A stretch of 64,000 bases of DNA from Octopus vulgaris (taxonomy: Eukaryota), in the NCBI GenBank assembly GCA_951406725.2, contig OX597815.1, positions 61,628,001-61,692,000 of the forward strand, written 5' to 3'. Below, in pieces: positions 10,339 to 64,000 of the stretch; position 1 is the stretch's first letter; each line of letters opens with the position of its first letter. The notes under the pieces were generated by a model, which was not told the DNA's origin, made no database searches, and was given only the letters and a program-made list of their open reading frames with translations. Position numbers and translations under genes: made by a program.

Positions 10339-10560
10339 AATCTTAGGGAGACCGTACATGTGTGGTAGTGTACTCTAGTGTTGAGTCAGTTGTCTATACG
10401 TCATTGGTGTAAAGTGATCCTTGTTTTTGATCAAGATCTGTGACAACTTTCTCTCTGTTTTCAGAGTTGGATCTTTCTTTACTTTACTCTAGCTACCATT
10501 ACTTATAAGACTTGCTAATTTTTCCGAGATTCACAAGGGTGGTATTCCATTAAGACTTAT
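10339..10560 (-). mobile_element. Inverted N-terminal segment of a PLE RT
   Basis: Minus strand reads KVKKDPTLKTERKLSQIL...PHMYGLPKI, the DPT and YGLPKI motifs that precede PLE RT cores. Confidence 0.8.
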
Positions 10561-10579
10561 AGTTAGCTGTAGAGGTTCA

Positions 10580-11860
10580 GCATGTCATCCACTGAGCCGC
10601 TTCCTTGTGGATATAAGCAGTCCATTAGCAGGAAAGTCAGCATCGTTCGTGAAGAATTCCACCCACTTCACAAAATTGATCAAGGATACCTCAATTGAAT
10701 CCAACCAGACGGTGAGTCTAGATGTGATAAGTCTGTTCACCCAAGTCCCAACTGGTGAAGCACTATCGGTGATTCAAGAGGAACTAGTGACAGACACCCA
10801 TCTAAACGAACGCACTAGTATACCAATAAGAAATTTGGTGGAAATGTCAACCTTCTGTATAGAAACCACCTATTTCAGTATGGACACTGATATATATCGA
10901 CAAGAAGAGGGTTTAGCTATGGGTTCGCCATTATCAACGATAATAGCTAATATATTTACACTTTATAATATATATACACTTTTAGAATTTGGCATTAGGA
11001 TCAACACAGTAAAACCAACCCTATGGCTGCGATATGTTGGTGACACCTTTATACTCTGGCCCCACCAGGAAGATGTCCAAGTGCCGTTAGATCATGTGAA
11101 CTCAATAAAGCCATCCACACAGTTCACAATAGAAAAGGAAGAAGACAATCAGCTAGCATTCCTGGACGTATTAATAACACGCACCAAGTATGGGTTCAGG
11201 ACATCCGTATACCGCAAGCCGACCTTCACTGGACGATACTTTAACTTCAATTCCCACCATCCATACAGTGTAAAGAGAGGGATTGCTCAGTGCCTAAAAC
11301 ATCGAGCAAAGAATATAAGTAGCGATCGTGATACCCGCCACGAAGCAACAACTACCCCCAAAACATACTATCCACTTCAATTATGAAGACGAGAGAGGAT
11401 GAGGCCAAAAAACTGTCCACAGTCTGTCCACCCTATGTGAAAGGCCTCGCCGAAAAGATAAAAAAGATAGAAAAGATATGCGGCCCATATGAATTCAGGA
11501 CAGCATTCAAGAGTAATACGACACTTCGCAAATATCTCCTTCGAAAACCAATAATACAAGAGAATATAACCAATAACTGTGTGTACTCCATCCCATGCAG
11601 CTGTGATAAGTCATATAAAGGCGAAACATGCCGCCCCCTCAAGATAAGGGTAGACGAACATCGCAAAGCTGTGGCGCGAGGACATTGATAAATCGGGTAT
11701 AGCTGATCACGTATGGAAAAATGGAGACCACCTCCTCCTGTGGGATGAAGTTAAAATAATAGACAGAGAACACCACTGGAAAATACGAAAACTAAAAGAA
11801 GCATCACATATGCTAGGACACAACAACCTCCAAAGCAGACCAAGTGCAGATATGAACAGC
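10580..11860 (+). mobile_element. Penelope-like element pseudogene: RT plus GIY-YIG endonuclease
   Basis: RT motifs SLDVISLFT, GLAMGSPLS, LRYVGDTF (YVDD degraded), FLDV, YRKPT. Endonuclease VYSIPCSCDKSYKGET..RVDEH, then IADHVW...RKLKEA. Frameshifts and stops present. Confidence 0.92.
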
Positions 11861-28299: not shown

Positions 28300-29619
28300 G
28301 TGTGCGTATATGTGTTAGTGTCTGCATATGTGTGTCCCTGAATGTGTGTGTGTGAATGTATGTTTACCGAAATATGGTTGTAGACGTAATAGGTGTGATG
28401 GTAGTAGCAGCGGTGGTGTTTGTTGTGCTAAGACGATGGTGGAGACGTGATGAAGGTAGTAGTGGTAGTGGCGACGGTGGTGGTTATAATGCATGATGAT
28501 GGTAGTGGTGGCACGGAGCAGTGTTGTTTTTTATATAATTTTTTTAATGTTATTACTATGGTAGAGATGGTGGCTCTGTTTGCTGTGGAGATGGGGATGT
28601 TGAGGAAGTGTTATTGGTGGTGATGGTGGTGGTGGTGGCGACGGTGATTGCGATAAGCTGTTACTAATGCTAGTGGTGGCGACGCAGAGAGAGAGCCAGA
28701 ACGATATTTACCAAGATGGTGGGTGATAAAGACACGGGTAGCGGTGGTGGGGTGTCAGTAAGGGTGGCCATGTTTATGATACGATGCTTATGTTGAAGGT
28801 GGCGGTGGGAGAGGAAATAATGATAGCGATGCGATGACGGCGACGACGACGAGGATGGCTGCGGTGTTTACGATGTTTATTGGTAAGAGCGAGTTTTGTG
28901 GGAGCGGCAGGGAAGAGTTGGGGTTACGGGTTACGGCAGTGGCAGAATGGCGGAGTTGGCGGCGATGGCAGCGACGGCAGCAATGGCGGAGGTAGGGGTG
29001 GATGAGGCTGGGGGTGGTGACGGTGGCAGCAAGGGGGGTAAAAGGCAGTAAGTGGTGGTGGCGATGATGATGATGATAATGTTGATGGTGATGGCGACGG
29101 TGAACACCACCACCACCACCACCACCACCACCATCATCATCATTACAAATCAGTAGTGAGAACGATAATTCGGTGGTTAAAATGGAGGCGATGACACTTT
29201 GCTACGACAGTGGAGAAAGTGGGTGGTGGCGGCTGTTGTTGTTTATCTGATAACGGCGGCGGCGGCGGCGGCGACGGTGGTGGTGGTGACAGCGGTAAAC
29301 TTTAAGATGGACAGATTGACAGACAGGTAAATGAAAGGCATATAAAAAGGGAGGTGGGGAGAGGGAGAAAACTAAATGAATAGAAAGAAGAGACAAGGAA
29401 AGGGGGGGAAACTGACGGAGAGAGACAGTAAGAAAGAAAGAAAGAGAGTAAGAAAGAACCTGTAGAGGGAAAGAAGGAAAAGAGATGTTTGGACGAAAGA
29501 AAGAGAGAAAGTTTTAATGGCGGTGGTGGTGATGGTGGTGATGGTGGGGTAAATCGAATGAACAGCAAAATAAGGTAGAGAAAACGCGAGTGAATCTGTA
29601 TGTATGAATGTGTGTATGA

Positions 29620-29659
<40 letters not shown>

Positions 29660-29943
29660 TTTAGTGTGAGGAATGAATGACTGAATTAGTGAGAGAGAGA
29701 GAGAGAGAGAAAAGTTGGAAACAGAAGAGAGATGTATAGAGAGAAAAGAAGGGCGATAGAGTGATGGATAGAAGGAGAGAGCGCGCGAAAGTGAAAAGAG
29801 GCAAAAGAAGAGAGAGAGAGTTAAAGGAATAAAGAGAGAGAGAAAGTTAGATTGTGGAGTTTCTCTATCAGATGATGTCGACACAACGTCAGTGGTCGGT
29901 TGGTGTGTAGGGTTTTTTCCAGTGAAATATTGTGGTTGGGAGA

Positions 29944-29953
29944 GATATAAGGG
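29944..29953 (+). promoter_or_regulatory. Possible TATA-like element
   Basis: TATAAGG just before the G-rich to C-rich strand switch, ~400 nt upstream of the ATG. Confidence 0.25.
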
Positions 29954-30344
29954 GGGAGGGAGAAGAGGAGGAAGATTGCTTCCCCCCACCGTCAGACTTC
30001 TTCAACCCTTGCCCGACACACAAACAGGCGCACCACACATACAACTAGCATCATCATTATCAACATCATCTTTGTCGTTGTCATTATCGTCATCAGCAGC
30101 AGTAGCAACACCACCAGCTTCCTTATATACACAATCATCATCATCACCATCAGCTGCAGCGCTTTCGTTGCCGTCTCATCGCTACCCTCGTCATCGTCGC
30201 CGTTGTTGCAGCCGCCACCGGCGCCGCCGCCACCACCACCACCACCACCGCCACCGCCACCGCCGCTGCCGCCGCCGTCGTCGTCGTCATATCGTCGCTG
30301 TTATCGTCATCGTCATCGTCGTCGTTATTCATTCGTTTGCAACA

Positions 30345-33300
30345 ATGGGAAGAAAGCTTCACAACAACAGCGCGTGTAAACGGCACAACAGCAACATCGC
30401 CGCTGCCGCCGCCGCCGCCGCCGCCCCAGCCACCATCACCACTACCACCACCACCACCACCACTACCACAGCCGCCACTAGCATCACGACAACATCAAAC
30501 AACAATAAGAACACTACGGCGAACAACAACAATAACTCAATGACGGATATTATGATCAACAACAACAACCACACTGTAACTACAACAACAGCAACTACTG
30601 CTACTGACACTTCTACTACCACCACTACTACTACAAGAAGCCGCAAGAACAACAACAAAAACAACAACAGTTGTAATACTGTTACTCCTACTACTACTAC
30701 TGCTACGAATATAACTACGAGAACGCGGAGTAGCCGCAACAACAACAACAACAACAACTGCAACAGCAATAATAGTGAGTACAATATCAACAATAACAAA
30801 CACAAAAACAAGAAAATAAAAAAAAATACGCACAACATTAAAAAGAAGAGGAAAACAAACAACAACAATACCAACGGCACCAGCAACAGGTTGTTGAACA
30901 AACAGTATTTAACACCGTCACCCCCACCCACCCCACCAACTCCGACACCGGTCGGTGGTGAGAGTGGGGTGGTCTGCGGTGATGGTGGGGAGGATGACCA
31001 ACGGCAAACTTCACCATCTTCATCATCACCACAACCAGCATCATCGTCAACAACAAACGCATCAATATTATCGCCACAGCCATCAACACCAGCACCAACA
31101 CAGCCGTCACCGCCTCCATCATCATCCCTATCAACTGTCAGCCTATCCGAATATGGCCACCACCATTGCTTTACTGTCACTACCGTTGTCTCACCTTTGA
31201 CCTCCAGTCGTCACTCTCCAGGCGGTCTGTTCTCCACCCCACTCGCTACCGATGTCACCCCTGTCCATGTCACCCCTGTCCATGTCGCCACCATTGTTGA
31301 TCCACACACCGCCACCACCACCGCCGCTGATTCCTGTATATCTTCTTTATTAACTACTACTAATACTACTTCTACAACTACTACTGCTGCCGCTACCACT
31401 ACTGCTCCTGCAACTTCAGCATCAACAGGAGAAGAAGAGGCTTTCATACCTGCCGCATCTCCTGCAGTCACAGCGTCAACATCGTCAACAGCAACAACAG
31501 CAACAATAACAAGAAGTACAAGAAAAACTAGGAAAACACCAGCAACAACTGTATTGTCATCTGTGTCATCATCATCATCATCATCATCATCTACGGCAGT
31601 ACAACACACCGCCACCACCAACAGAGCCACCACAAGGGATTGGAGTGCAGCAGTAGCAGCCAGGACAGCGGTCATTGCCACCGTCGACACCACCACTACC
31701 ACCACCACTATCGACACCACTGCCACAGTCGTCGTCGCTCCGTCTGTGTCCACCACTGAAGAAGGCGACAGCGGTCGCACTAAAGTTTCTGTTGTCCACC
31801 CTACCACCACTACCACCGCCACCGACGCCCTCCCTCCTGTTACCACCACTGCTACTACTAATATTACTACTAATACTACTGATAGTGCTAATAGTAATAT
31901 CTCTCATACCAGAACGTCTGTCGTCGCTATTGGCGACGGTGACAACCTCGCCTCTACCTCAACCCCAACGCCCAGCCCCTCTACCCGACACACTGATAAC
32001 ACTTTAACGTCGTCTACCCACGAAAACAAACAATATTACACCACCACCACTAACAACAACAATATTGACAATACAAACACCAGCGCCACCAGCAACAGTA
32101 GCATCATCATCACAAACAACAGCTACTACAACATCACTGTTGACAACACCAGTAACAGTTCTGTCGCCGCCACCACCACCGCCACCACCACCGCCACCAC
32201 CACCGCCACCACCGCCACCACCGCCACTAACAGCAACAACCACAACAACAGTTACCAAAACTCTTGTGACAAAATACAGAAACAACAACAACAACAAGTA
32301 AGAGCAACAACATATAAAAGTGTGAATCCCCACCATCACCACCAGCAATACCTGCATCACCGTAATTACCCGCACCCGTATCTTCGCTACCCGAACAACC
32401 CTTATCAAAAACAACAACAACAACAGCAATTACACCATCACTATCTTCAGCAGCAGCAGCAGCAACAACAACAACAACAACAACAGCAAGAATCGCTGCA
32501 GCTCGTTGGCAGAGGGTTAAAGATCACAGCTAGTTTCGAAAGCTCGTCCACGCTCACCACCACCGGCACCACCTCAACTACTTTCAGTAACAACAACAAC
32601 ATCGGTAATATTAACAACCGCTCTAGCCATCACCATCACCATCATTACCCTCAACAGATTCAGTTTCAACCTCACATCAACAACAAAAACAATAACAGTG
32701 GTGACAGTGGCGTCACCACTAACATCGCTACCACTGCAACAACCAACACCAACAACAATAATACCATCGCCACCAATACTGTCATCACCACCCCAACCCC
32801 CGACACCCCGTACCACTTCCATCATCATCACAACAACAGCAACAATCGTTTACTCCTGCAAACTCCCCAGTATCACCACAAGCACCACCATCGGCAGCAA
32901 CACGACCTTCATCACCACCACGTTCACCATCATCAGCACCACACCACCACCACCGCTACTCCCGCCTCCGCTGCCACCACTACCACTACCAAGAATAACA
33001 ACAACAACGTCAGCAACGTCAGCAGCAGCTTACTGTCATCTGGATTGGAGGTTACCCGCAGTTGTTCACCCGACAAATGCACAAACCACGCTAGGCGACC
33101 GCCGTCACCGTCAACAGTTGGGGTGGGGAACAATTATTTGAAGGGACCGGTCACTACCACCACTGCTGCCGCGGCGGCTATTGTCAGCAAAACAATAGCC
33201 CCGGCTGCCACCACCATCACCACCACAACCACCACCAATACGACTTATAATAAGAACTGCAACAACCATTACTACTGCCGCGACAACAATAACATTAACA

Positions 33301-36300
33301 AGGTTAGCACCGCCGTCGCTACTACAACCACAACCACCACCACCAACAACAACAGCAATAATAATAATAACAACAGCAACAACAACAACAGCATCACCAC
33401 TAATTCCGTCAAGTGTGTCAACCACAGGAATAACAACTACCGCAACAACAACAACACCAACAAGAACAGAAACAGCGGCAACAACTTCTATTTATGCAAC
33501 AATAACAACAACAGCAACTTGTATTATCACTACAACAAGGCTACTACTTGTACTGCTATTACCGCCACATCCACCACCACTAACAACAACAACATCAACA
33601 GGAAGTACTGCATCCGAAACTACGTCGGCGACTGTCGCCGGCCGGTGGACGCCATTACGAAGAATAGGTCGGCTGGTCCGGTTGCGTCTCCGGCCTTCGT
33701 TGGTCCACAAAGGGTTCACCCTTACACGAGACGAGGTTCCTTTGCCCTCGGTACCACCATCACCAGTGAAGCGTCCTCTACAGGCAGAAGCCGTCGAAGT
33801 TGTTATTATCGTGGAATACAACAAACCCTGCCAACCCAACAACAACAACAACAACAGGATCCTCTCCCCCCGTACCTTCGCCACCATCGTCAACGGACCT
33901 GTGACATTACAGATACAACAATTTCTACTACTACTACTATTACCACTCCTACGACTTTTTATACTTATAACGACAACAACAGCAGCAATAACAACAATGA
34001 TCACACGACATTTTTATCATGTTCAGCGCTAAGTGCAGTAACAACAATAACAACATCAGAAGAAGCAATAGCAACAACAATAACAGCAGCGACAACATCG
34101 GCAGCACCGGCAGCAGCAGTAACAACAACAACAACATCTACAACAACGACGACAACGGGAAATCGGTCAACGTCTCAGCTAACAAGTTCGTCACATCACT
34201 CAACGCCACCGTTGACATCGCCGCCATCACCACCGCCGCCACTGTCGTCAGCGTTTAACTCTGGTGATGACAGAATTCCAGCATCATCATCGTCGTGGTC
34301 ACCAGCAACAATAACAACAGCAACAGAGACTGACGACAACGGCGAGGAAACTACCTTTAAAACGGGTAACACCACCACCACCAAGAACAACAACTATAAC
34401 ATTAACGCTGACACCACCGCCAATAACAAAAACAACAGCATCACAATTAACGCCACCACCATCGACAGCACCTCTCCCACCATCTCTGACGATAACGCCG
34501 TCATTACCACCACCAACCTCACCACCGATACTAATACCACCACCACCAACAACAGCGGAAACAATACGATCAACTACGGAATCTTCGGTCATACCAGCAC
34601 CAGTAGCAGTGATAAGCTTACCACTAATACCAGCACCAGTAACATCACGACTATCAACGGAGCGACATTGACTGTAGCAGAGGAGGTGACGTCGCAGAAG
34701 GTGAAGGTAAAGGCGTACAAGTCGACAACGAAGGCTAAGTTGAAGGTGAGGAAGGCGACTACGACGACAACGGTGAATGGTCGGTCGGAGGGGGGCGTGG
34801 CAGCGGTAGCGGAGTGTAGCAGCAGCAGCAGCAGCAGCCGCGCCGTCTACCTGGCTGCTGTCGCCTCTCACCCGCTGTCGGCAATTACTAACTCCAACGC
34901 CACTACCATTACCACAACCAACACCACCTTTGACACTGACGACGGCGAGACTTGCTCAGTCGCCCGCATCGCAATTAGCAACCGTAACAACAACAACGTT
35001 AGTCCTGACGTGAAAGAAGTTACACCACCGCCGTCATCACCTTCAACATCGCCGTCGCTGGTGACAGCAGCACCAACAACAACTACACCAAATAGGAAAG
35101 ACAGTGACGACCACACTATATCGGAGGAGAAATCTCCGGTGTCGGCCATGGCGGTTTCAATCCCGGTGGTCGTCGCTGAGTCGACTGGGGCAGACATGAC
35201 CACCACCACCACCACTTCTACCATCATCACATCAACTGGAACAACAGCGACGCCTTCGTCACCATCACCACCGCCGCCACCACCAGAAACGCCCCCACCC
35301 CCACCCCCACCACCACAGACACCACCGCCACTGCCACCACAATCGCCACCACCACCACCACCACCACCTCCACAGTCACCACCGCCAACACCACCACCAC
35401 CACCACAGCACTTACCCTCATCCCCAGCAACTCTTCCGACACCCCGACCATCTATATCCCCACCGCTTCTACCACCACCACCACCACCACCAACCTCGGC
35501 TTCGCTACCGTCATTGCCATTGACAAAAACAGCAAAAAAAACACAAACGGTGACGAGGCCGGAGGAGAAGGAGAAGGAAGCGGTGACACCAGCAGCAACA
35601 GCAGCAGCAGTAGCAGCAGCAGTAGTAGCAGCTGTGACGGGTGAAAGACCGGTGCTTTCCCCAGCCACCACCACCACCCATACCGCGACTCCGCCAACGA
35701 CTGAATCAAAAACAACAACAACAGCGACCGGATCAACAACAACAACAATAACGCCCGTAACGACAACTACGACGATGACAGCAGTAGCAGCAGCGGCGGC
35801 GGCGGTGGCGACGGCAGCGGCTTCAGTATCAGCAGCAGCCTCGTACTCGACGTGGACCAGCACCACCACCTCCACCACTACGACGGCCGCCACCAGCAGC
35901 AGCAGCAATAACAACATCAGCAGCAGCAGCAGCAACAACAGCAGCAGCAGTAGGCCAACCCAGCAGACCGGCAGTGTTGGCAACATGGATAGACGTAGCT
36001 CAGCCGCGGTTGTAGTGCCACTCATATTAAAACCACCACCACCGCCATCACTAGCAGCTTTAGCCACACTATCATCATCATCATCATCGTCGTCGTCGTC
36101 GTCGTTATCGTCACAACAGAAGACAATATCGTTATCGTCATCGACAACGACGACAACCACAACAACAACATCATCATCATCTTCATCATCTAATAGCAGC
36201 AATCCAAACACCAAGCGCAATTCTTCCACGCGGACTTCTTCGTCCGGTTACACAAGCGTGACGTGTTCACTGGAAGGATCCGAAGAATATCTTAAACCTA

Positions 36301-36587
36301 TTTATCAGGATGGACAGGTGATTTTAGAGGTTGAATGTGGCCAAAATAAGGCCCTTATGTACCTGTCGAAATTATGTCAGGGAAGTAAAGGGCCCTGCAT
36401 TTATTTCCAAGGTTCTTGGTTAACCCCAAATGAATTTCAGTACGTTAGCGGACGCGAATCAGCCAAAGATTGGAAACGCTCTATAAGGCACCACGGCAAA
36501 AGCATGAAACTTTTGCTCTCCAAAGGGATTTTAACTGTACATTCGGCCGTCTGTGACTGCGACGGTTGTCGCATAAGTTCACCTGTG
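30345..36587 (+). CDS. SAMD11: SAMD11-like SAND-domain transcriptional regulator, coding exon 1: giant poly-T/N/Q/H/S/P N-terminus plus SAND domain (~36282-36540)
   Basis: First in-frame ATG at 30345 in good context (ACAATGG); frame is stop-free to the donor GTG|GTAAGT (phase 0). The C-terminal EVECGQNKALMYLSKLCQGSKGPCIYFQGSWLTPNEFQYVSGRESAKDWKRSIRHHGKSMKLLLSKGILTVHSAVCDCDGCRISSPV matches my recollection of vertebrate SAMD11 (EVECGANRALLYVRKLCQGSKGP...KDWKRSIRHKG...SKGILQVHPPICDCPGCRISSPV). KDWK at 36465-36476. The start position is less certain than the domain. Confidence 0.88.
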
Positions 36588-38735
36588 GTAAGTAAACGCA
36601 CTTTATTTGGGGTTTCAGCTGGTTTGTGTGCGTGCTTTATATATATTATATATTATAGCTAATTTTAATTTTAAAAAATCATTTTCATTTTGATATCGGT
36701 GTTATGAAATATGCACGCATGTATGTATGTATGTATGTATGTATGTATGTATGTATGTATGTATGTATGTATGTATGTATGTATGTATGTATGTATATAC
36801 ACATACGCATAGATATGTAATACAACATATCTGTAAAACCAAAAAACGAAAAAAATTATTGATGTAGTTTTAATTTTTGTTTTTAAGTTTTCATTTTGCG
36901 GCGTTTAACTTTAGTAAAAGAAAAAATATTTAGTTGATTTCTTTTTTAAAAAAAGAATTGTTTTATTTTCTGTAACAATTATCGATACTCTCTTCATATA
37001 TGATTTACAACCGAGCCCTACTCGTAGTTAGTTGTTTAAGGGAAGCGGGCGATTTAATTAAGCAATAATATACACATCCCTTTCTCTCCACAAAAATATG
37101 ATCTCTTATGCTAGTTTTGAAAAATATCGTAATCATCATCATCATCATTGTGATTTAGTATAAGTGAACAATTATACTGATAAACAGTAAAACTAGTCAG
37201 GTTTTATGCTACCCCAATCTCGCACGAAAATCGTCGTTAAGGTCTTCACTTAGGTTGGCCAAGTTTCTCTTACTTCGGAAATGCATAAACATCACAGAAA
37301 TCCTATTGTTCCTTTCACACACACGCGTATGTGTATATATATATGTGTATAATATATTTTGCATCATATATACATACACACACATTATCGAATCGTAACT
37401 TTTCGATAAAATAAGTAGCAGGCTGAAGTGAGATCGATATATGATCGATTAGGAATTTTGAAGGTACAGCCCCAGCATTGCCACACTGACAAATGACCAC
37501 AATTAGTAAAAAACCTAAGTGGCCCTTCATAAATAAAGCTGTTGGTGACCCGCGGCAGTAAATTGTGGTAGCCCTTGAATGAAGGACAGTGAATGGTGTC
37601 AGTAGCTATGAGAAAAGCATGAACATCACAACATTTTATTTAGCTTACCCTTTAAATCTAGAAATTGTTTGTGTACGGCCCTTTATTTGGTCGGGGATGC
37701 AGTAAGAAGGAGCTACTATTGCCGGGGCGGACTAGTACCACACGTACTTTTGATTTTCGGGTGAGCTGATATTGCACACTCCACCCGGCTAATGTTCTTC
37801 GGAACAGCATGAACATCTCAAAACCTCATTCAATGTTTGCAGCAGTAACGTTGAAAAAAACCTGAAATTCTGAAAGGAGGGGTTAGTCGGTTACATCAAC
37901 TCCAGTCCTCAACTCGTACTTATTTCATCGACCCCGAAAGGATGAGGGGTATATTCGACCTATGACCCAGGGTGTTCCAACAGCGGCCATCCCGCCTATG
38001 AAAGGGACTTCATTGGTCAAAATGCTTCCTCTTGAATAAAACGGTAGAACGTTATTTGTGGTATATTTGGCTAACATGTCAAGCGATCATCACCATCGTT
38101 TGTAGTTGATGTTGTTTGACGTTGGTCAACTGGATTTTATTATGAAAGCTGTGTCAAACAGTAACCACCACTCCAATTTCCGATATCCAAAACAAAATTC
38201 TTCAATGTGTCGATCCCTTCTTAAGATAAGTCTGAGCTAGATTTAGCTGCTATTTCTACCATCTTCGTCAACAATATAGAGACGTAATATTTTTGCTCGA
38301 CTTAACTTCAAGCTCGATATAAACTTTTCTGAAACTTTTCTTCTACTACCTTGTTTTTAATTTGATTTTGTCATTACTAATTACTAAGAAAATTAATTAA
38401 TTTCTTTATTACAAAGATGTTGGGGGTCTGAGGTTCATCTTCCTTCATTTTTTTCAAAAATATTATTTACCACTTCAAAAAAAAAAAATTCTTTCTCTAT
38501 CTACGAAAACTTTGCTCACTTTTATAAAACTTATTAATCAAGAACGTTTGCTAACTTTCTCTAGTTCATGTTTATTTATGGGTGTGCGTATGTATACGTG
38601 TGTGTATGTAAGTGTATATATGAATTGAATGCGTATATGCCTATGTGTATATATGTTTCAGGTCGTTATCTCTGCTATGACGTTTATATATACACTTACC
38701 AGTCAAATGTACGTACGCTTGTGTGTGTGTATGTG

Positions 38736-42825: not shown

Positions 42826-45039
42826 GTACATATACACACACACAGATATATATATATATATATATATAGTATACAACTGTGAGATACAATAAACCTATTA
42901 AAAACTAGGGAACACACACATATATACATACATCTACATATCTATTCCGTTCGTCCACATACAGATACACAACCATACTCGCATTCACGCGCGCACTGAC
43001 TGGAACAGGAGTCACTGAAGCGCAAACAACACCTTCGTCGTAGTCTGCCCATCTCCTCCTTCTTTCCCGCCATCGTCGCCCTATTATCGTCTCTTTTATC
43101 GTCGTCAATAAACTCTCTTCCCCTCTTCCTCCCTCACTCTTTATAAAAATACCCCGTCCCCGTCTCTCTGCTGCCGCCGAGTTCTCTCACCTCTCACCTC
43201 GCCTCCTACCACCTTCAGATCTCTGTCTAACCCCCCTATCTTCCTTGTTTCTCTCTCACTGCCGCTTCGTTTACCCACCGACGCCACCACTAACAGCAGC
43301 AGCGGCAGCACGGCGTCCGTCGCTATCTCCAACACCACCACATTAAGAATAATAGCGGCCGCTGTCCCACACACCTTACATCCATCACGTCTCACCATCA
43401 CGTCTACACTGATACGCCGCCACCACCATCAACAACCACCACCTAGTTCTCTCGTAGATTATCTCCTCCCACTACCTCTCTCTTTCATCTTTCTATCCCA
43501 CATCTACTACCACCTCTCCAACAGCCGCTGCTTTTTTTGTTTTGTTCTCTTTTATGCGTTTTGTTACAATTTTTGTTTTATGCTTTTTTCTCATTTTTTC
43601 AAATATTTTTTTATTTCGTATTTTATTTACTTTTGCTCTTTTCGTGTTTTTATTTTTTGTTTTTCCCGGATTTTTTCCGTTTCTTTTTATTTATTACTTT
43701 GTACTTTGTACTTTGTGAGTTTCTTTTATGGCGTATATATATATGAATGTGTGTATATATATATATATATATATATGAATGTGTATGGGGTACAGGACGT
43801 CATGTATATTGTATGTATATCTGTAATACGTATTTATATGTATGCATGTATATACATACACTCACACACACATGTATATATACTCATAATATATATATAT
43901 ATATATACAAGAAAATCTGCTTCTTATATATTGTGTGTGTGTGGTAAATTCAATCACACACATCAGTATGCAGTATGTGATGTACGAAACTCTGGGCTGT
44001 TGAGTTACTTATGTAACTTTACTGCCGAATAATGTATATACTCTTAGCTTGTATTGAGTTCTTTTTATTCAACCAAGCCCGTAATATATATATATTATAT
44101 ACATACATAATATATACAGATATATACGTATGTGGTATATATATGATCATACAGAGAAATTTTACAATTGACATTGAGTTGAATACACACACACACACAC
44201 GCACACACCCACATTTATATGACGTGTGTGTGTCTGTGTATGTCGCCGGCGAGGCTGTTTGAGGTTGTTGCAGGCTTACCCCGCTTCCCTCTTCCCTCCA
44301 CATATACACTACAAACACCTCCTCCTTCTTTCACTGTGTAATCTTTCGCTCTTACTCCCGTCACTCCCCCTTCCACTCACCTCGTTACAACCGCTTTACC
44401 ACACACATACACACACAAAGAGATATACAAAAACACGAATACACACGTACGCATCCCGTTTCTCTCTCTCGCTCTTTCTCTCTCTGTCTCTTATACCCTC
44501 TCCTCGCCATCTCCCACTCCTTCACTACTTACTGCTGTCTCTCCTCTCTCCTTCACGAGATCGGGTTTTTCCACTTGGCTTCGTTCGTCTCATTCATTAC
44601 GCGCCGGGGCTTGGCTCTTTCTCTCCCTCTCCTCTCATTCTCTATCTTTTCATCTCTTTATCTTATATCTTCCTCCTCTCTAAATATCTCTTACGCTCTC
44701 TACTCTCTCTTTTATTTCATATTTGTGTTTTTTAACGTATTTATTTTTTCTTCCTCTGAAAAGAGTGCGTCGTAGCTCTGAGGCGATCTTAGGCAGCACG
44801 CAAACATATATATACAGACACATAGTCAGAGCGAAACACACATATATGTATGTGCATATATATACATACATGGTATGTATATATTGGCGTCTCCGCTACC
44901 AATCATCATCGTCATCATTTAACGACTTACGTTTTTAGTGCGTGATTTGTTTCTTTGTAACGCCTTAAGATCATTAAAACATACACAATACATATACATA
45001 CATACATTTATACACATATATACATACATTCTTTTCTTT

Positions 45040-61739: not shown

Positions 61740-61930
61740 AACCGATGTAGATTAGCAGAAAAACGCCGTGAATCGCCTCTCAGAGAAGACAGATGTTTTA
61801 CAGCCAATATGGTGGAATGGAAGACAGGTGAAAACCTGTGCACTAACAAATCGTCATCACTTTGTCCCAAGAATTGCGACGATTCCACTTACTCTCATGA
61901 AAATGAAAGAAAAGCACCAAAACGTTGCAG
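61740..61930 (+). CDS. SAMD11: SAMD11-like coding exon 2 (191 nt, NRCRLAEKRR...)
   Basis: Acceptor TTTTCTTCGATTTCAG, phase 0. NRCRLAEKR continues SSPV as SAMD11 SSPV-NRGRLADKR does. Donor CAG|GTGAGT, phase 2. Confidence 0.9.
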
Positions 61931-62254: not shown

Positions 62255-62424
62255 TCCATTACGAGAATCTCGTTTGAGCAATATTATCGATCTGTTGAGA
62301 ACAACACGAGAAAAAGAAACGGTTCCAATGAACGAACTCGAAGATAGTTTACACAAACAGAAGAAAGGTGTTGCCATCTTGGAGTTTGGTACACCATTGA
62401 TCAATGGATGTTGTATGGGAGTTG
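62255..62424 (+). CDS. SAMD11: SAMD11-like coding exon 3 (170 nt, SPLRESRLSNIIDLLR...GCCMGV)
   Basis: Branch-like CTAAC, then TTCCTGTTTTTTAG acceptor. Phase 2 entry puts it in the open frame of ORF 62274. Donor G|GTAAGT, phase 1. This exon is needed to keep exons 2 and 4 in frame. Confidence 0.82.
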
Positions 62425-62830: not shown

Positions 62831-64000
62831 AAAATGCCAAAAGTTTGTCATTGAATATTCTCAATAACAATAACAGCAGCAGCAGCATCGACAGCAGTCT
62901 TTCTGATAGTTTAATGAATGATGAGAACATGACGATGGCACGTTCGAATCAAGCAGACATTCGCAATTATTTGCCCGAAGATATCAGTGGTAAAAGAGCC
63001 AGATTAGAACTGGACGCCATAGAGAAGGATGCCATGAAAGAAGACTTGGCTCCGAACGAAGTGACCGACGGTCCAAGAGGTGGTCATCATCACCATCATC
63101 ATCATAACCATCACAGTCATCACAATCACCACCACCACCATCAACAGCAACAACAACAACAACAACAGCACCACAGTGATTTCATAAATGGAACTGGTGT
63201 CACAAAACCGCCGAAATGTGACTCTGAACGCTGTAACAGCGACGAAGATGGTGTCGTGGGAGTTACCAATGAAGATGGTGGTAGCGATAGCAACAACAAT
63301 CACAAAAAGTCTAACAACAACAATAACAACAACAGCAACAACAACAACAACAACGACAATAGCAACAACAGCAACAATACTAATAGTGGAAGTGGAGCTG
63401 GTGGTGATGGTGACGGTGATGCTGGCGATGATGACAATGATCAGGATGCGGATAAAAACATTAACAACAATAACAGTAGCAACAACAACAGCAACAACAA
63501 TAACAACAACAATAACAATAATAACAACAACAATAACAATAACAATGGTGATAACAGTAATAGTAATGATAACAATGATGATGCTGATAAGGAAGAGGTG
63601 GATGATGAAGATGAAGATGTTGAAGTAGATGTCACATCAAACGATGACGACATAAAACCTTCTACACATCCACCTCCTCACCCTCTTGTTAATCCTCTTG
63701 TCCATCCTCATCCTCTTGCCGTGTCGGCCATGATGCAAAATGGCGTACATTGTGAAGAAGCAGCTTGGCGAGCAGCCGAGATGGCGCGGAACAATATGTC
63801 GCCAGAAATTAAGAAAGAAAGACACCTCCCCTCCGACATGATGGAAGCAACTAACATGGAGGAGCAACATCGAATCAAGTCTGAATATGGTGTCATGGAC
63901 TCATCAATTGATTCTGAGGAAAAACTTGATATGAGAAGAATGGAAGAATTTGGTGAAGGGAACCGATGTCGAATGAGAGAAGAATGTGAGGCGTGTGATG
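62831..64000 (+). CDS. SAMD11: SAMD11-like coding exon 4, 3'-partial (poly-H/Q, poly-N and acidic tracts, SUMO-type motifs)
   Basis: Acceptor TTGTTTTCTTTGCAG, phase 1 (G|AA). The frame ENAKSLSLNILNN... stays open to the window end; the ORF track missed it because it has no stop. Confidence 0.85.

Follow-up and report, generated by a model that had tools for sequence, protein, structure and literature searches.

Gene structure at the locus

The longest open reading frame of the window (the whole 64-kb stretch of DNA analyzed here) extends from 29772 to 36662 on the forward strand and comprises 2,296 codons from stop to stop; the runner-up among the 48 ORFs of at least 150 amino acids listed for the window has 459 codons. 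All features described below are on the forward strand. The putative 5' UTR of a long transcript (29636-30344) is triplet-rich, with 4, 9, and 9 stops in the three frames and several ATGs, all lying before 30345. Contig X1 rec1 aligns to 29719-30206 and would start at ~29636 if colinear; contig depth is 0 at 29102-29402, a partly masked region. The first in-frame ATG (30345-30347, context gcaacaATGg) opens a protein that begins with MGRK. An MG[KR] start is present in 8 of 245 relatives, including three of the four best SAND matches, which weakly favors this ATG as the start codon; the region around it (30207-30774) has no direct contig alignment.

From this ATG a low-complexity extension of 1,880 codons (30345-35984) runs through stretches of T, S, N, A, P, Q, and H, has few tryptic sites, and gave no Pfam match at an E-value of 0.01 or better. 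Contigs of probable RNA origin directly cover 3,798 of its 5,640 bases. Methionine is absent from residue 71 to 1601 (1,531 codons), and a basic cluster, KKKRK (30798-30854), matches a pattern that we take to be a candidate nuclear localization signal. An internal in-frame ATG (35985-35987) has a strong context (ggcaacATGg), equal to that of the ATG at 30345.

The stop-free frame closes with a SAND domain (PF01342, 36315-36533; Pfam E-value 7.5e-25) at the splice donor at 36587. In this domain KDWK occupies 36465-36476, with an H-x3-C-x-C-x2-C motif after it, and the domain matches the SAND domains of GMEB1, SP100, and SP140 in the PDB (E-values 1e-11 to 1e-9). A 25-kb phase 0 intron (intron 1, 36588-61739, GTAAGT...AG) separates it from predicted exon 2 (61740-61930), which starts with NRCRLAEKR versus NRGRLAEKR in vertebrate SAMD11 (P0062). 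Predicted exon 3 (62255-62424) contains a mollusc-conserved SPLRES/SRLSNII motif and has BLAST matches to P0008, P0013, and P0052, and the low-complexity predicted exon 4 (2,350 nt in all; first part at 62831-64000) continues past the window. Predicted exons 5 and 6 (L007:3070-4408 and L007:5370 onward), which contain a SAM domain, lie ~2 to 4.6 kb past the window. The first exon and the five downstream exons, with predicted junctions, form an in-frame model of a predicted 3,497-amino-acid SAND+SAM protein, whose mass is roughly estimated at 370 kDa.

The SAM domain is split by an intron. A SAM HMM built from homologues places it at residues 3407-3488 of the model (E-value 2e-27); the last exon by itself gives SAM_1 at an E-value of 0.004, below the cut-off, and PDB matches to Sfmbt, Scm, and Ph. 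In the genome sequence, N-L-S-S replaces the near-invariant K-(L/V)-G-P at the end-helix positions, where 67 complete relatives have Gly in 66 cases, Lys in 64, and Ser in none. The changed positions coincide with the end-helix contacts of Sfmbt (K1186, G1188, L1191, and K1192) given in PMC4863741.

Orthology and length

The earlier note had called this gene a SAMD11 orthologue, and a SAMD11-type identity is borne out by the SAND domain with KDWK, the downstream Ph/Scm-type SAM domain, and a reciprocal best match. A fish samd11 query finds the locus (E-value 2e-44, 66%; next match 44%), and the forward search from the octopus protein leads to SAMD11. Identity in SAND is ~70% to vertebrate and 80% to 84% to gastropod proteins. 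Pro-orthologue of SAMD11, perhaps of SAMD7 too, is the most fitting term for the gene; judged by sequence, it is the only SAMD11-type (SAND plus SAM) gene of the octopus genome. A SAND-only tree, poorly resolved and with long-branch artefacts and unsettled bootstrap values, was left out of the orthology call. The octopus protein shares with vertebrate SAMD11 and molluscan SAND+SAM proteins an N-terminal SAND, NRxRLAEKR after it, and a C-terminal Ph/Scm-type SAM, but differs from them in its length before SAND, its total length, and its altered SAM end-helix motif.

The giant N-terminus is confirmed in the predicted protein, in which 1,979 residues precede the SAND core; in 206 relatives this region has a median length of 118 residues and never exceeds 415, and in other molluscs it has ~60 to 140. 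Total length is likewise extreme (3,497 amino acids versus a median of 958 and a maximum of 1,309 in 88 relatives), and the predicted SAND-SAM spacer has 1,330 residues versus a median of 582. The figure of ~200 residues up to the end of SAND that the earlier note gives for vertebrates roughly holds, with most complete SAND alignments ending at residues 170 to 300. Short N or T runs precede SAND in 5 of the 10 best-scoring relatives chosen, including two named gastropod proteins (P0016 and P0025). The database matches listed for the length windows searched include neither a cephalopod orthologue nor a long octopus protein, and the best identity among them is ~86%.

A stop-free frame in decayed triplet repeats

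That a single frame is kept open through the exon is well supported. Between 30345 and 36587, the three forward frames contain 0, 61, and 116 stop triplets, so that all 177 lie outside the ORF frame, and the remaining five frames are each closed within 456 codons. Codon-position base composition predicts 34.5 stops in the extension (30345-35984), where none is observed; TAY codons occur 40 times and TAR codons never, and the depletion is even across thirds of the extension. When stops no more than 60 nt apart are merged into single events, the open frame still has a P of ~1e-9, which supports the proposal that selection has kept the frame. A weak frame test with an independent codon model, by contrast, prefers the ORF frame in only 12 of 21 bins.

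The description of the exon as consisting of trinucleotide repeats holds for its periodicity (period-3 self-identity 0.51 versus ~0.24 at other periods) but not for perfect triplet arrays, which occupy 383 of 6,243 bp and reach at most 26 bp. The exon is a decayed triplet landscape, in whose frame homopolymer runs of at least 5 make up 12% of the residues. Triplet character extends beyond the ORF, with a period-3 self-identity of 0.44 to 0.46 at 28.5-30.3 kb. Since this upstream DNA is equally triplet-like and of the same composition but, unlike the extension, has stops in every frame, coding is marked by stop depletion and not by repeat type. Di- and tetranucleotide arrays were said to be absent from the frame and rich in the flanks, and counts of perfect arrays of at least 15 bp agree (0 and 0 inside versus 169 and 56 outside). 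Periods divisible by 3 account for 69 of 70 Tandem Repeats Finder (TRF) rows inside and 22 of 65 in the flanks (counted by hand). Triplet-period repeats and within-species length polymorphism, by which slippage-expanded coding repeats are recognized, are both found, and growth by in-frame slippage is supported by the TRF periods together with the frame-preserving indels described below.

Contigs of probable RNA runs

Contigs, rather than reads, were compared from four runs belonging to four studies and two organism labels (A and B); none of the runs is recorded as RNA. The tool guesses that they are, and the alignment behavior at the donor is the ground for reading them so. The contigs of all four runs follow the exon, cease aligning at 36587, and continue for 619 to 877 nt; they end where predicted exon 4 is repetitive, which fits contig breaks. 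These colinear, apparently spliced transcripts reach back to ~29.64 kb. A single contig of 2,874 nt covers ~32460-35333, and no listed contig bridges ~32200-32460 or 35947-36076. The 15 listed joints (186 others fall outside the listing) lack GT..AG ends and are taken for repeat artefacts. Depth of 0 at 30306-30606 most likely reflects repeat masking rather than a transcript gap, and a 2- to 6-fold upward depth step from the last extension contigs to the SAND contig in all four runs would fit a shorter isoform but was not counted, since different parts of one gene cannot be ranked by the depth of their contigs.

Indels were expected to be multiples of 3, and among these within-species contigs the net length change is 3n in all 28 listed contig pieces and all seven gaps between pieces, although this test is weak because triplet DNA gives 3n indels even without selection. 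Twelve of the 28 pieces have a non-zero length change, including a 12-nt non-triplet duplication. In contig X8, 2-nt gaps at 31272 and 31277 occur with a net change of -3 and are taken to be a single in-frame event, misaligned and with a putative third part. Substitutions comprise 23 changing and 5 silent ones and reveal no constraint on the amino acids; silent changes are fewest in the ORF frame (5, whereas the other two have 10 and 8) in a comparison that reaches ~0.6% divergence (labels A and B). The pN/pS ratio is 1.42 (1.4 to 1.8; 22 sites), with a 95% confidence interval of 0.50 to 4.94 that spans 1, and lends no support to a function of the extension.

Interpretation

The 6.2-kb first exon likely adds ~1,900 amino acids to the predicted protein. 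It is probable that this stop-free exon is translated into a mostly disordered extension of about that size, grown by slippage and tolerated rather than selected for its sequence. An N-terminus that was ancestrally short, between the start codon and SAND, as in other molluscs, would have swollen through successive rounds of slippage and short tandem duplications. Any frameshift or stop would cost the protein SAND and SAM and so would be purged, whereas the identity of the residues could drift, and the same genome-wide mutational pressure may also have enlarged other transcription factors and the spacer between SAND and SAM. Despite the large, flexible burden at its N-terminus, the protein would continue to read DNA through SAND and to end in a SAM. 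Capture of 5' UTR DNA in one step was rejected as the main origin, since the 1,531-codon Met-free block argues against it.

An unlikely alternative makes the long protein a minor product, with most protein starting at the ATG at 35985 of a shorter transcript. Its context is as good as that of the upstream ATG, it would leave 99 residues before the SAND core, near the family median, and it lies in the unbridged interval 35947-36076; alternative SAMD11 first exons are also described for human retina (PMC11450717). However, all SAND contigs start at one repeat (36076), so that no new 5' end is needed to account for the break, and the strong stop purge in the extension implies that the long form matters somewhere.

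We regard it as quite unlikely that the extension has an adaptive role as a condensate or polymer scaffold that boosts chromatin binding and compensates for a weakened SAM end-helix. The extension has up to 37 N/Q per 80-residue window, and several windows reach at least 30, a level that we take to be prion-like; it also contains the basic cluster, and the N-L-S-S change falls at the positions of end-helix contacts. In SAMD1 (PMC11969672), a winged helix and a SAM accompany a lineage-specific intrinsically disordered region (IDR); the part of it analyzed, ~100 residues and Pro/Ala-rich, is experimentally required. This IDR acts through its integrity and not its sequence, so that neutral residues are compatible with function. 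A DNA-binding domain, a recently evolved low-complexity region, and a SAM (polymerizing in SAMD1) are common to both proteins, but the DNA-binding folds differ, and the octopus region is far larger and known from sequence alone. Against a scaffold stand the composition of the extension (60 aromatics in 1,975 residues, or 3%; S+T 35%; only 57% of windows unfolded with FoldIndex below 0) and the similar inflation of many unrelated regulators. Distinctly unlikely, too, is a scenario in which the SAM surface decayed and the slippage-built region of 1,900 residues took over Polycomb-type condensate assembly, with length alleles tuning repression, amid a Dictyostelium-like inflation of regulators. 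A reading in which the stretch is never translated, being a triplet-rich leader, or else arose in assembly, its frame open through chance or composition, would agree with the equally triplet-rich upstream flank, the lack of synonymous excess in the ORF frame, and the lack of a long octopus protein among the database matches listed, but is highly improbable given 177 stop triplets with none in the ORF frame, five other frames closed within 456 codons, and a sequence reproduced by independent runs.

If the extension is indeed a tolerated product of slippage, a chromatin regulator conserved among animals can swell by slippage ~17-fold before SAND and 3.6-fold overall, with selection visible on the frame alone. 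Vertebrate SAMD11 and its paralogue SAMD7 are photoreceptor PRC1 components. Mouse Samd11 binds Phc2 and Samd7 (PMC7892874). The octopus gene offers a natural setting in which to ask if very large low-complexity regions tune condensates or are mere passengers.

Similar swelling in other octopus regulators

Such an extension finds no support as something special to SAMD11. Long stop-free exons are also present in other octopus transcription factors, which we take from their motifs to be FoxG, FoxD, FoxL2, homeobox, and Sox types; 1,092, 640, and 478 residues precede the domain in the FoxG-, FoxD-, and FoxL2-type frames of the same genome. At least 8% of residues lie in homopolymer runs in 9 of the 11 long transcription-factor frames fetched (8% to 22%), whereas 70 full-length relatives of octopus SAMD11 have a median of 1.3% and do not exceed 4.4%. 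These are 11 of the 12 frames of at least 600 amino acids among 149 Forkhead, homeodomain, and HMG matches, and having been picked as the longest, they show that the trend exists rather than its frequency. The case hints at a broader trait of octopus transcription factors, of which the literature listings searched, those on SAMD11 included, gave no description.

In Dictyostelium discoideum, coding triplet repeats likewise yield homopolymers whose length varies within the species, a pattern that mutation and drift could produce (PMC3460934). The octopus case differs in affecting an animal chromatin regulator, and in its decayed, mixed T/N/S/P/H/Q runs within one 1,900-residue block. Giant repeat exons are broken up in short-read assemblies and are prone to mis-annotation. 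As predicted, octopus SAMD11 is the most extreme repeat-driven swelling among the octopus regulators examined, its 2,296-codon frame exceeding all those from the 149 matches, the next having 2,196 (a four-homeodomain exon) and 1,439 codons.

Open reading frame and repeat composition

The extension, a predicted 1,880-codon low-complexity N-terminal region (30345-35984, +) ahead of the SAND domain in exon 1, is real and unusual in scale, and is accounted for by a known process. The plus strand holds 2,296 codons without a stop at 29772-36662; the second-longest ORF in the window (48 ORFs of at least 150 aa) has 459 codons. Between the first in-frame ATG (30345) and 36587, the three plus-strand frames contain 0, 61, and 116 stops, bearing out the earlier note's single stop-free frame from 29772, and across the three frames stops are evenly spread over the thirds of the extension. 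From base composition by codon position, 34.5 stops would be expected over the extension's 1,880 codons; 0 are seen. With clustered stops merged when at most 60 nt apart, P is ~1e-9, and ~1e-4.5 at 120 nt. The upstream 1.8 kb is a good matched control, since its triplet richness nearly equals that of the ORF, yet it has stops in every frame.

Long di- and tetranucleotide arrays had been described as absent from the frame and abundant in its flanks, and perfect arrays indeed number 0 and 0 within versus 169 and 56 outside. The description of the frame as consisting of trinucleotide repeats holds for periodicity (TRF periods divisible by 3 in 69/70 rows inside versus 22/65 in the flanks, by hand count), but perfect triplet arrays make up just 383 bp of the 6,243-bp frame. 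Homopolymer runs of at least five hold 12% of residues; the stretch is a decayed repeat, not a pure one. G-rich triplet tracts upstream (28500-29560) mirror the C-rich ORF, and GC skew changes sign at ~30 kb, close to the inferred transcription start.

Gene identity

Exon 1 carries a SAND domain at its 3' end (Pfam E 7.5e-25; PDB SAND domains matched too) and stops at a GTAAGT donor; 32 kb further along the plus strand is an exon resembling SAM. Splice sites predict plus-strand exons 2 (61740-61930, opening NRCRLAEKR versus vertebrate NRGRLAEKR) and 3 (62255-62424) and, in window numbering continued into the adjoining DNA (L007), 4 (62831-65180), 5 (66070-67408), and 6 (68370 onward). Joined in frame to exon 1, these give a predicted protein of 3,497 aa, with SAM matched at E 2e-27 by an HMM built from homologues. 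A fish samd11 query ranks the locus first in the octopus genome (2.8 Gb, 227 contigs; 66%, E 2e-44; runner-up 44%), and a forward search with the octopus protein returns SAMD11 and molluscan relatives. The proposed SAMD11 orthologue is thus upheld in its SAND, SAM, and best match in both directions; pro-orthologue, possibly of SAMD7 as well, is the safe term.

Other SAND genes of this genome comprise one that is 44% identical, presumably DEAF1-like, and three near-identical matches of ~28% on two contigs, which suggest recent duplication; the loci are L002 (G000:C2:26860713), L003, L004, and one more match, the fifth, on C3. Haliotis (P0013, P0052) apparently has two SAND+SAM paralogues; a single one was found in the octopus genome. 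A reverse-transcriptase fragment at 10493-11386 (Pfam RVT_1, E 1.5e-4, below cut-off) is likely a LINE-type retroelement remnant. Intron 1 contains an island (43020-43520) in which a TATA-like TATAAAA lies near 43142 and triplet runs are C-rich; it resembles the 5' end of the gene and is possibly an internal promoter of a SAND-less isoform. In human retina, SAND-less SAMD11 isoforms are described (PMC11450717).

Size relative to homologues

The octopus protein has 1,979 predicted residues ahead of the SAND core, in line with the ~2,000 claimed, versus a median of 118 and a maximum of 415 in 206 relatives (of 252 fetched proteins, those with at least 60% identity across at least 80 residues). 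Its total length compares with a median of 958 and a maximum of 1,309 aa in 88 relatives with both domains, and its SAND-SAM spacer is 1,330 residues versus a median of 582 in relatives. Among the matches listed, database searches retrieved no cephalopod orthologue.

Transcription

The stretch is present in 20 of 24 listed runs, none on record as RNA, and contigs from four runs of four studies were aligned. These follow exon 1, with 4,269 of 6,243 bases aligned directly (repeats masked). In all four runs alignment ends exactly at 36587 and contigs continue 619-877 nt further, finishing, under the exon model, within exon 4 repeat tracts, which are expected contig break points. Because contigs follow the exon, quit at 36587, and run on, and depth is 0 in the intron bin 36928-37228, a long, spliced transcript is likely. 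One contig has an inferred span of 32460-35333 and two others of 33364-35947; the most 5' contig begins at an inferred ~29636, and coverage of 30207-30774 is taken from contig extent alone. No listed contig record bridges ~32200-32460 or 35947-36076. A single 6.9-kb exon, seen piecewise rather than end to end, is probable, and a shorter transcript using the internal in-frame ATG at 35985 is possible.

Variation and constraint

Indels in multiples of 3 had been proposed as a check across cephalopods and molluscs. In the contigs aligned here, all 28 listed pieces and 7/7 between-piece gaps keep the frame, although in triplet DNA this is a weak test. Net length change is non-zero in 12 of the 28 pieces, and indels include a 12-nt non-triplet duplication. 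The 28 substitutions comprise 23 amino-acid-changing and 5 silent (pN/pS 1.42, CI 0.50-4.94, after dropping the 6 substitutions that adjoin indels). In contigs under a second organism label, the extension differs at 23 of 3,601 bases, and 36117-36587 at 0 of 471 (3.0 expected, P 0.049). By these counts, the frame is protected and the SAND end conserved, and extension residues are without visible constraint.

Origin and possible function

Most likely, a short N-terminus was enlarged by slippage and short duplications within the first coding exon; frame loss would delete SAND and SAM and be purged, and residues would drift while the frame stays. This growth mode resembles the coding repeats known in Dictyostelium, as excerpted in PMC3460934.

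The extension is possibly functional rather than a passenger, by analogy with SAMD1, whose recently evolved IDR is required for polymerisation irrespective of exact sequence (PMC11969672, in part), but it is low in aromatic residues and scores as unfolded in just 57% of windows. The octopus SAM, at L007:5370-5546 and ~4.4 kb downstream of the window, reads N-L-S-S in place of a near-invariant K-L-G-P end-helix motif (Gly is present in 66 of the 67 complete relatives). These positions match end-helix contacts described for Sfmbt in the portion of PMC4863741 consulted, and the change may weaken SAM polymerisation or Ph binding. Mouse Samd11 is linked to PRC1 in an extract of PMC7892874.

UTR capture is less favoured than internal growth, the most likely route: a block of 1,531 codons is Met-free, gastropod relatives carry short runs of N or T in the corresponding position, and, as weak support, the octopus protein shares its MG[KR] start with three of the four best matches (8/245 overall).

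Other regulators in the genome

Forkhead, homeodomain, and HMG searches gave 149 matches and 12 distinct frames of at least 600 aa, of which 11 were fetched. In this sample, biased to long frames, homopolymer runs make up 8-22% of residues in 9/11; for 70 full-length SAMD11 relatives the median share is 1.3% and the highest 4.4%. Since long frames of other regulators are equally homopolymer-rich, the SAMD11-type exon is the extreme of a genome trend, not a one-off. One gene at L011 (G000:C6:111052500-111062400), which from its motifs we take to be FoxG-type (the other subfamily labels being assigned likewise), has a single 1,439-codon frame (stops 0/29/208), in which 1,092 residues of low complexity (runs of N, D, G, H, and Q) precede the forkhead domain. 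Fox, homeobox, and Sox-type exons at L013, L014, L016, L018, L020, and L021 have 10-22% of residues in homopolymer runs.
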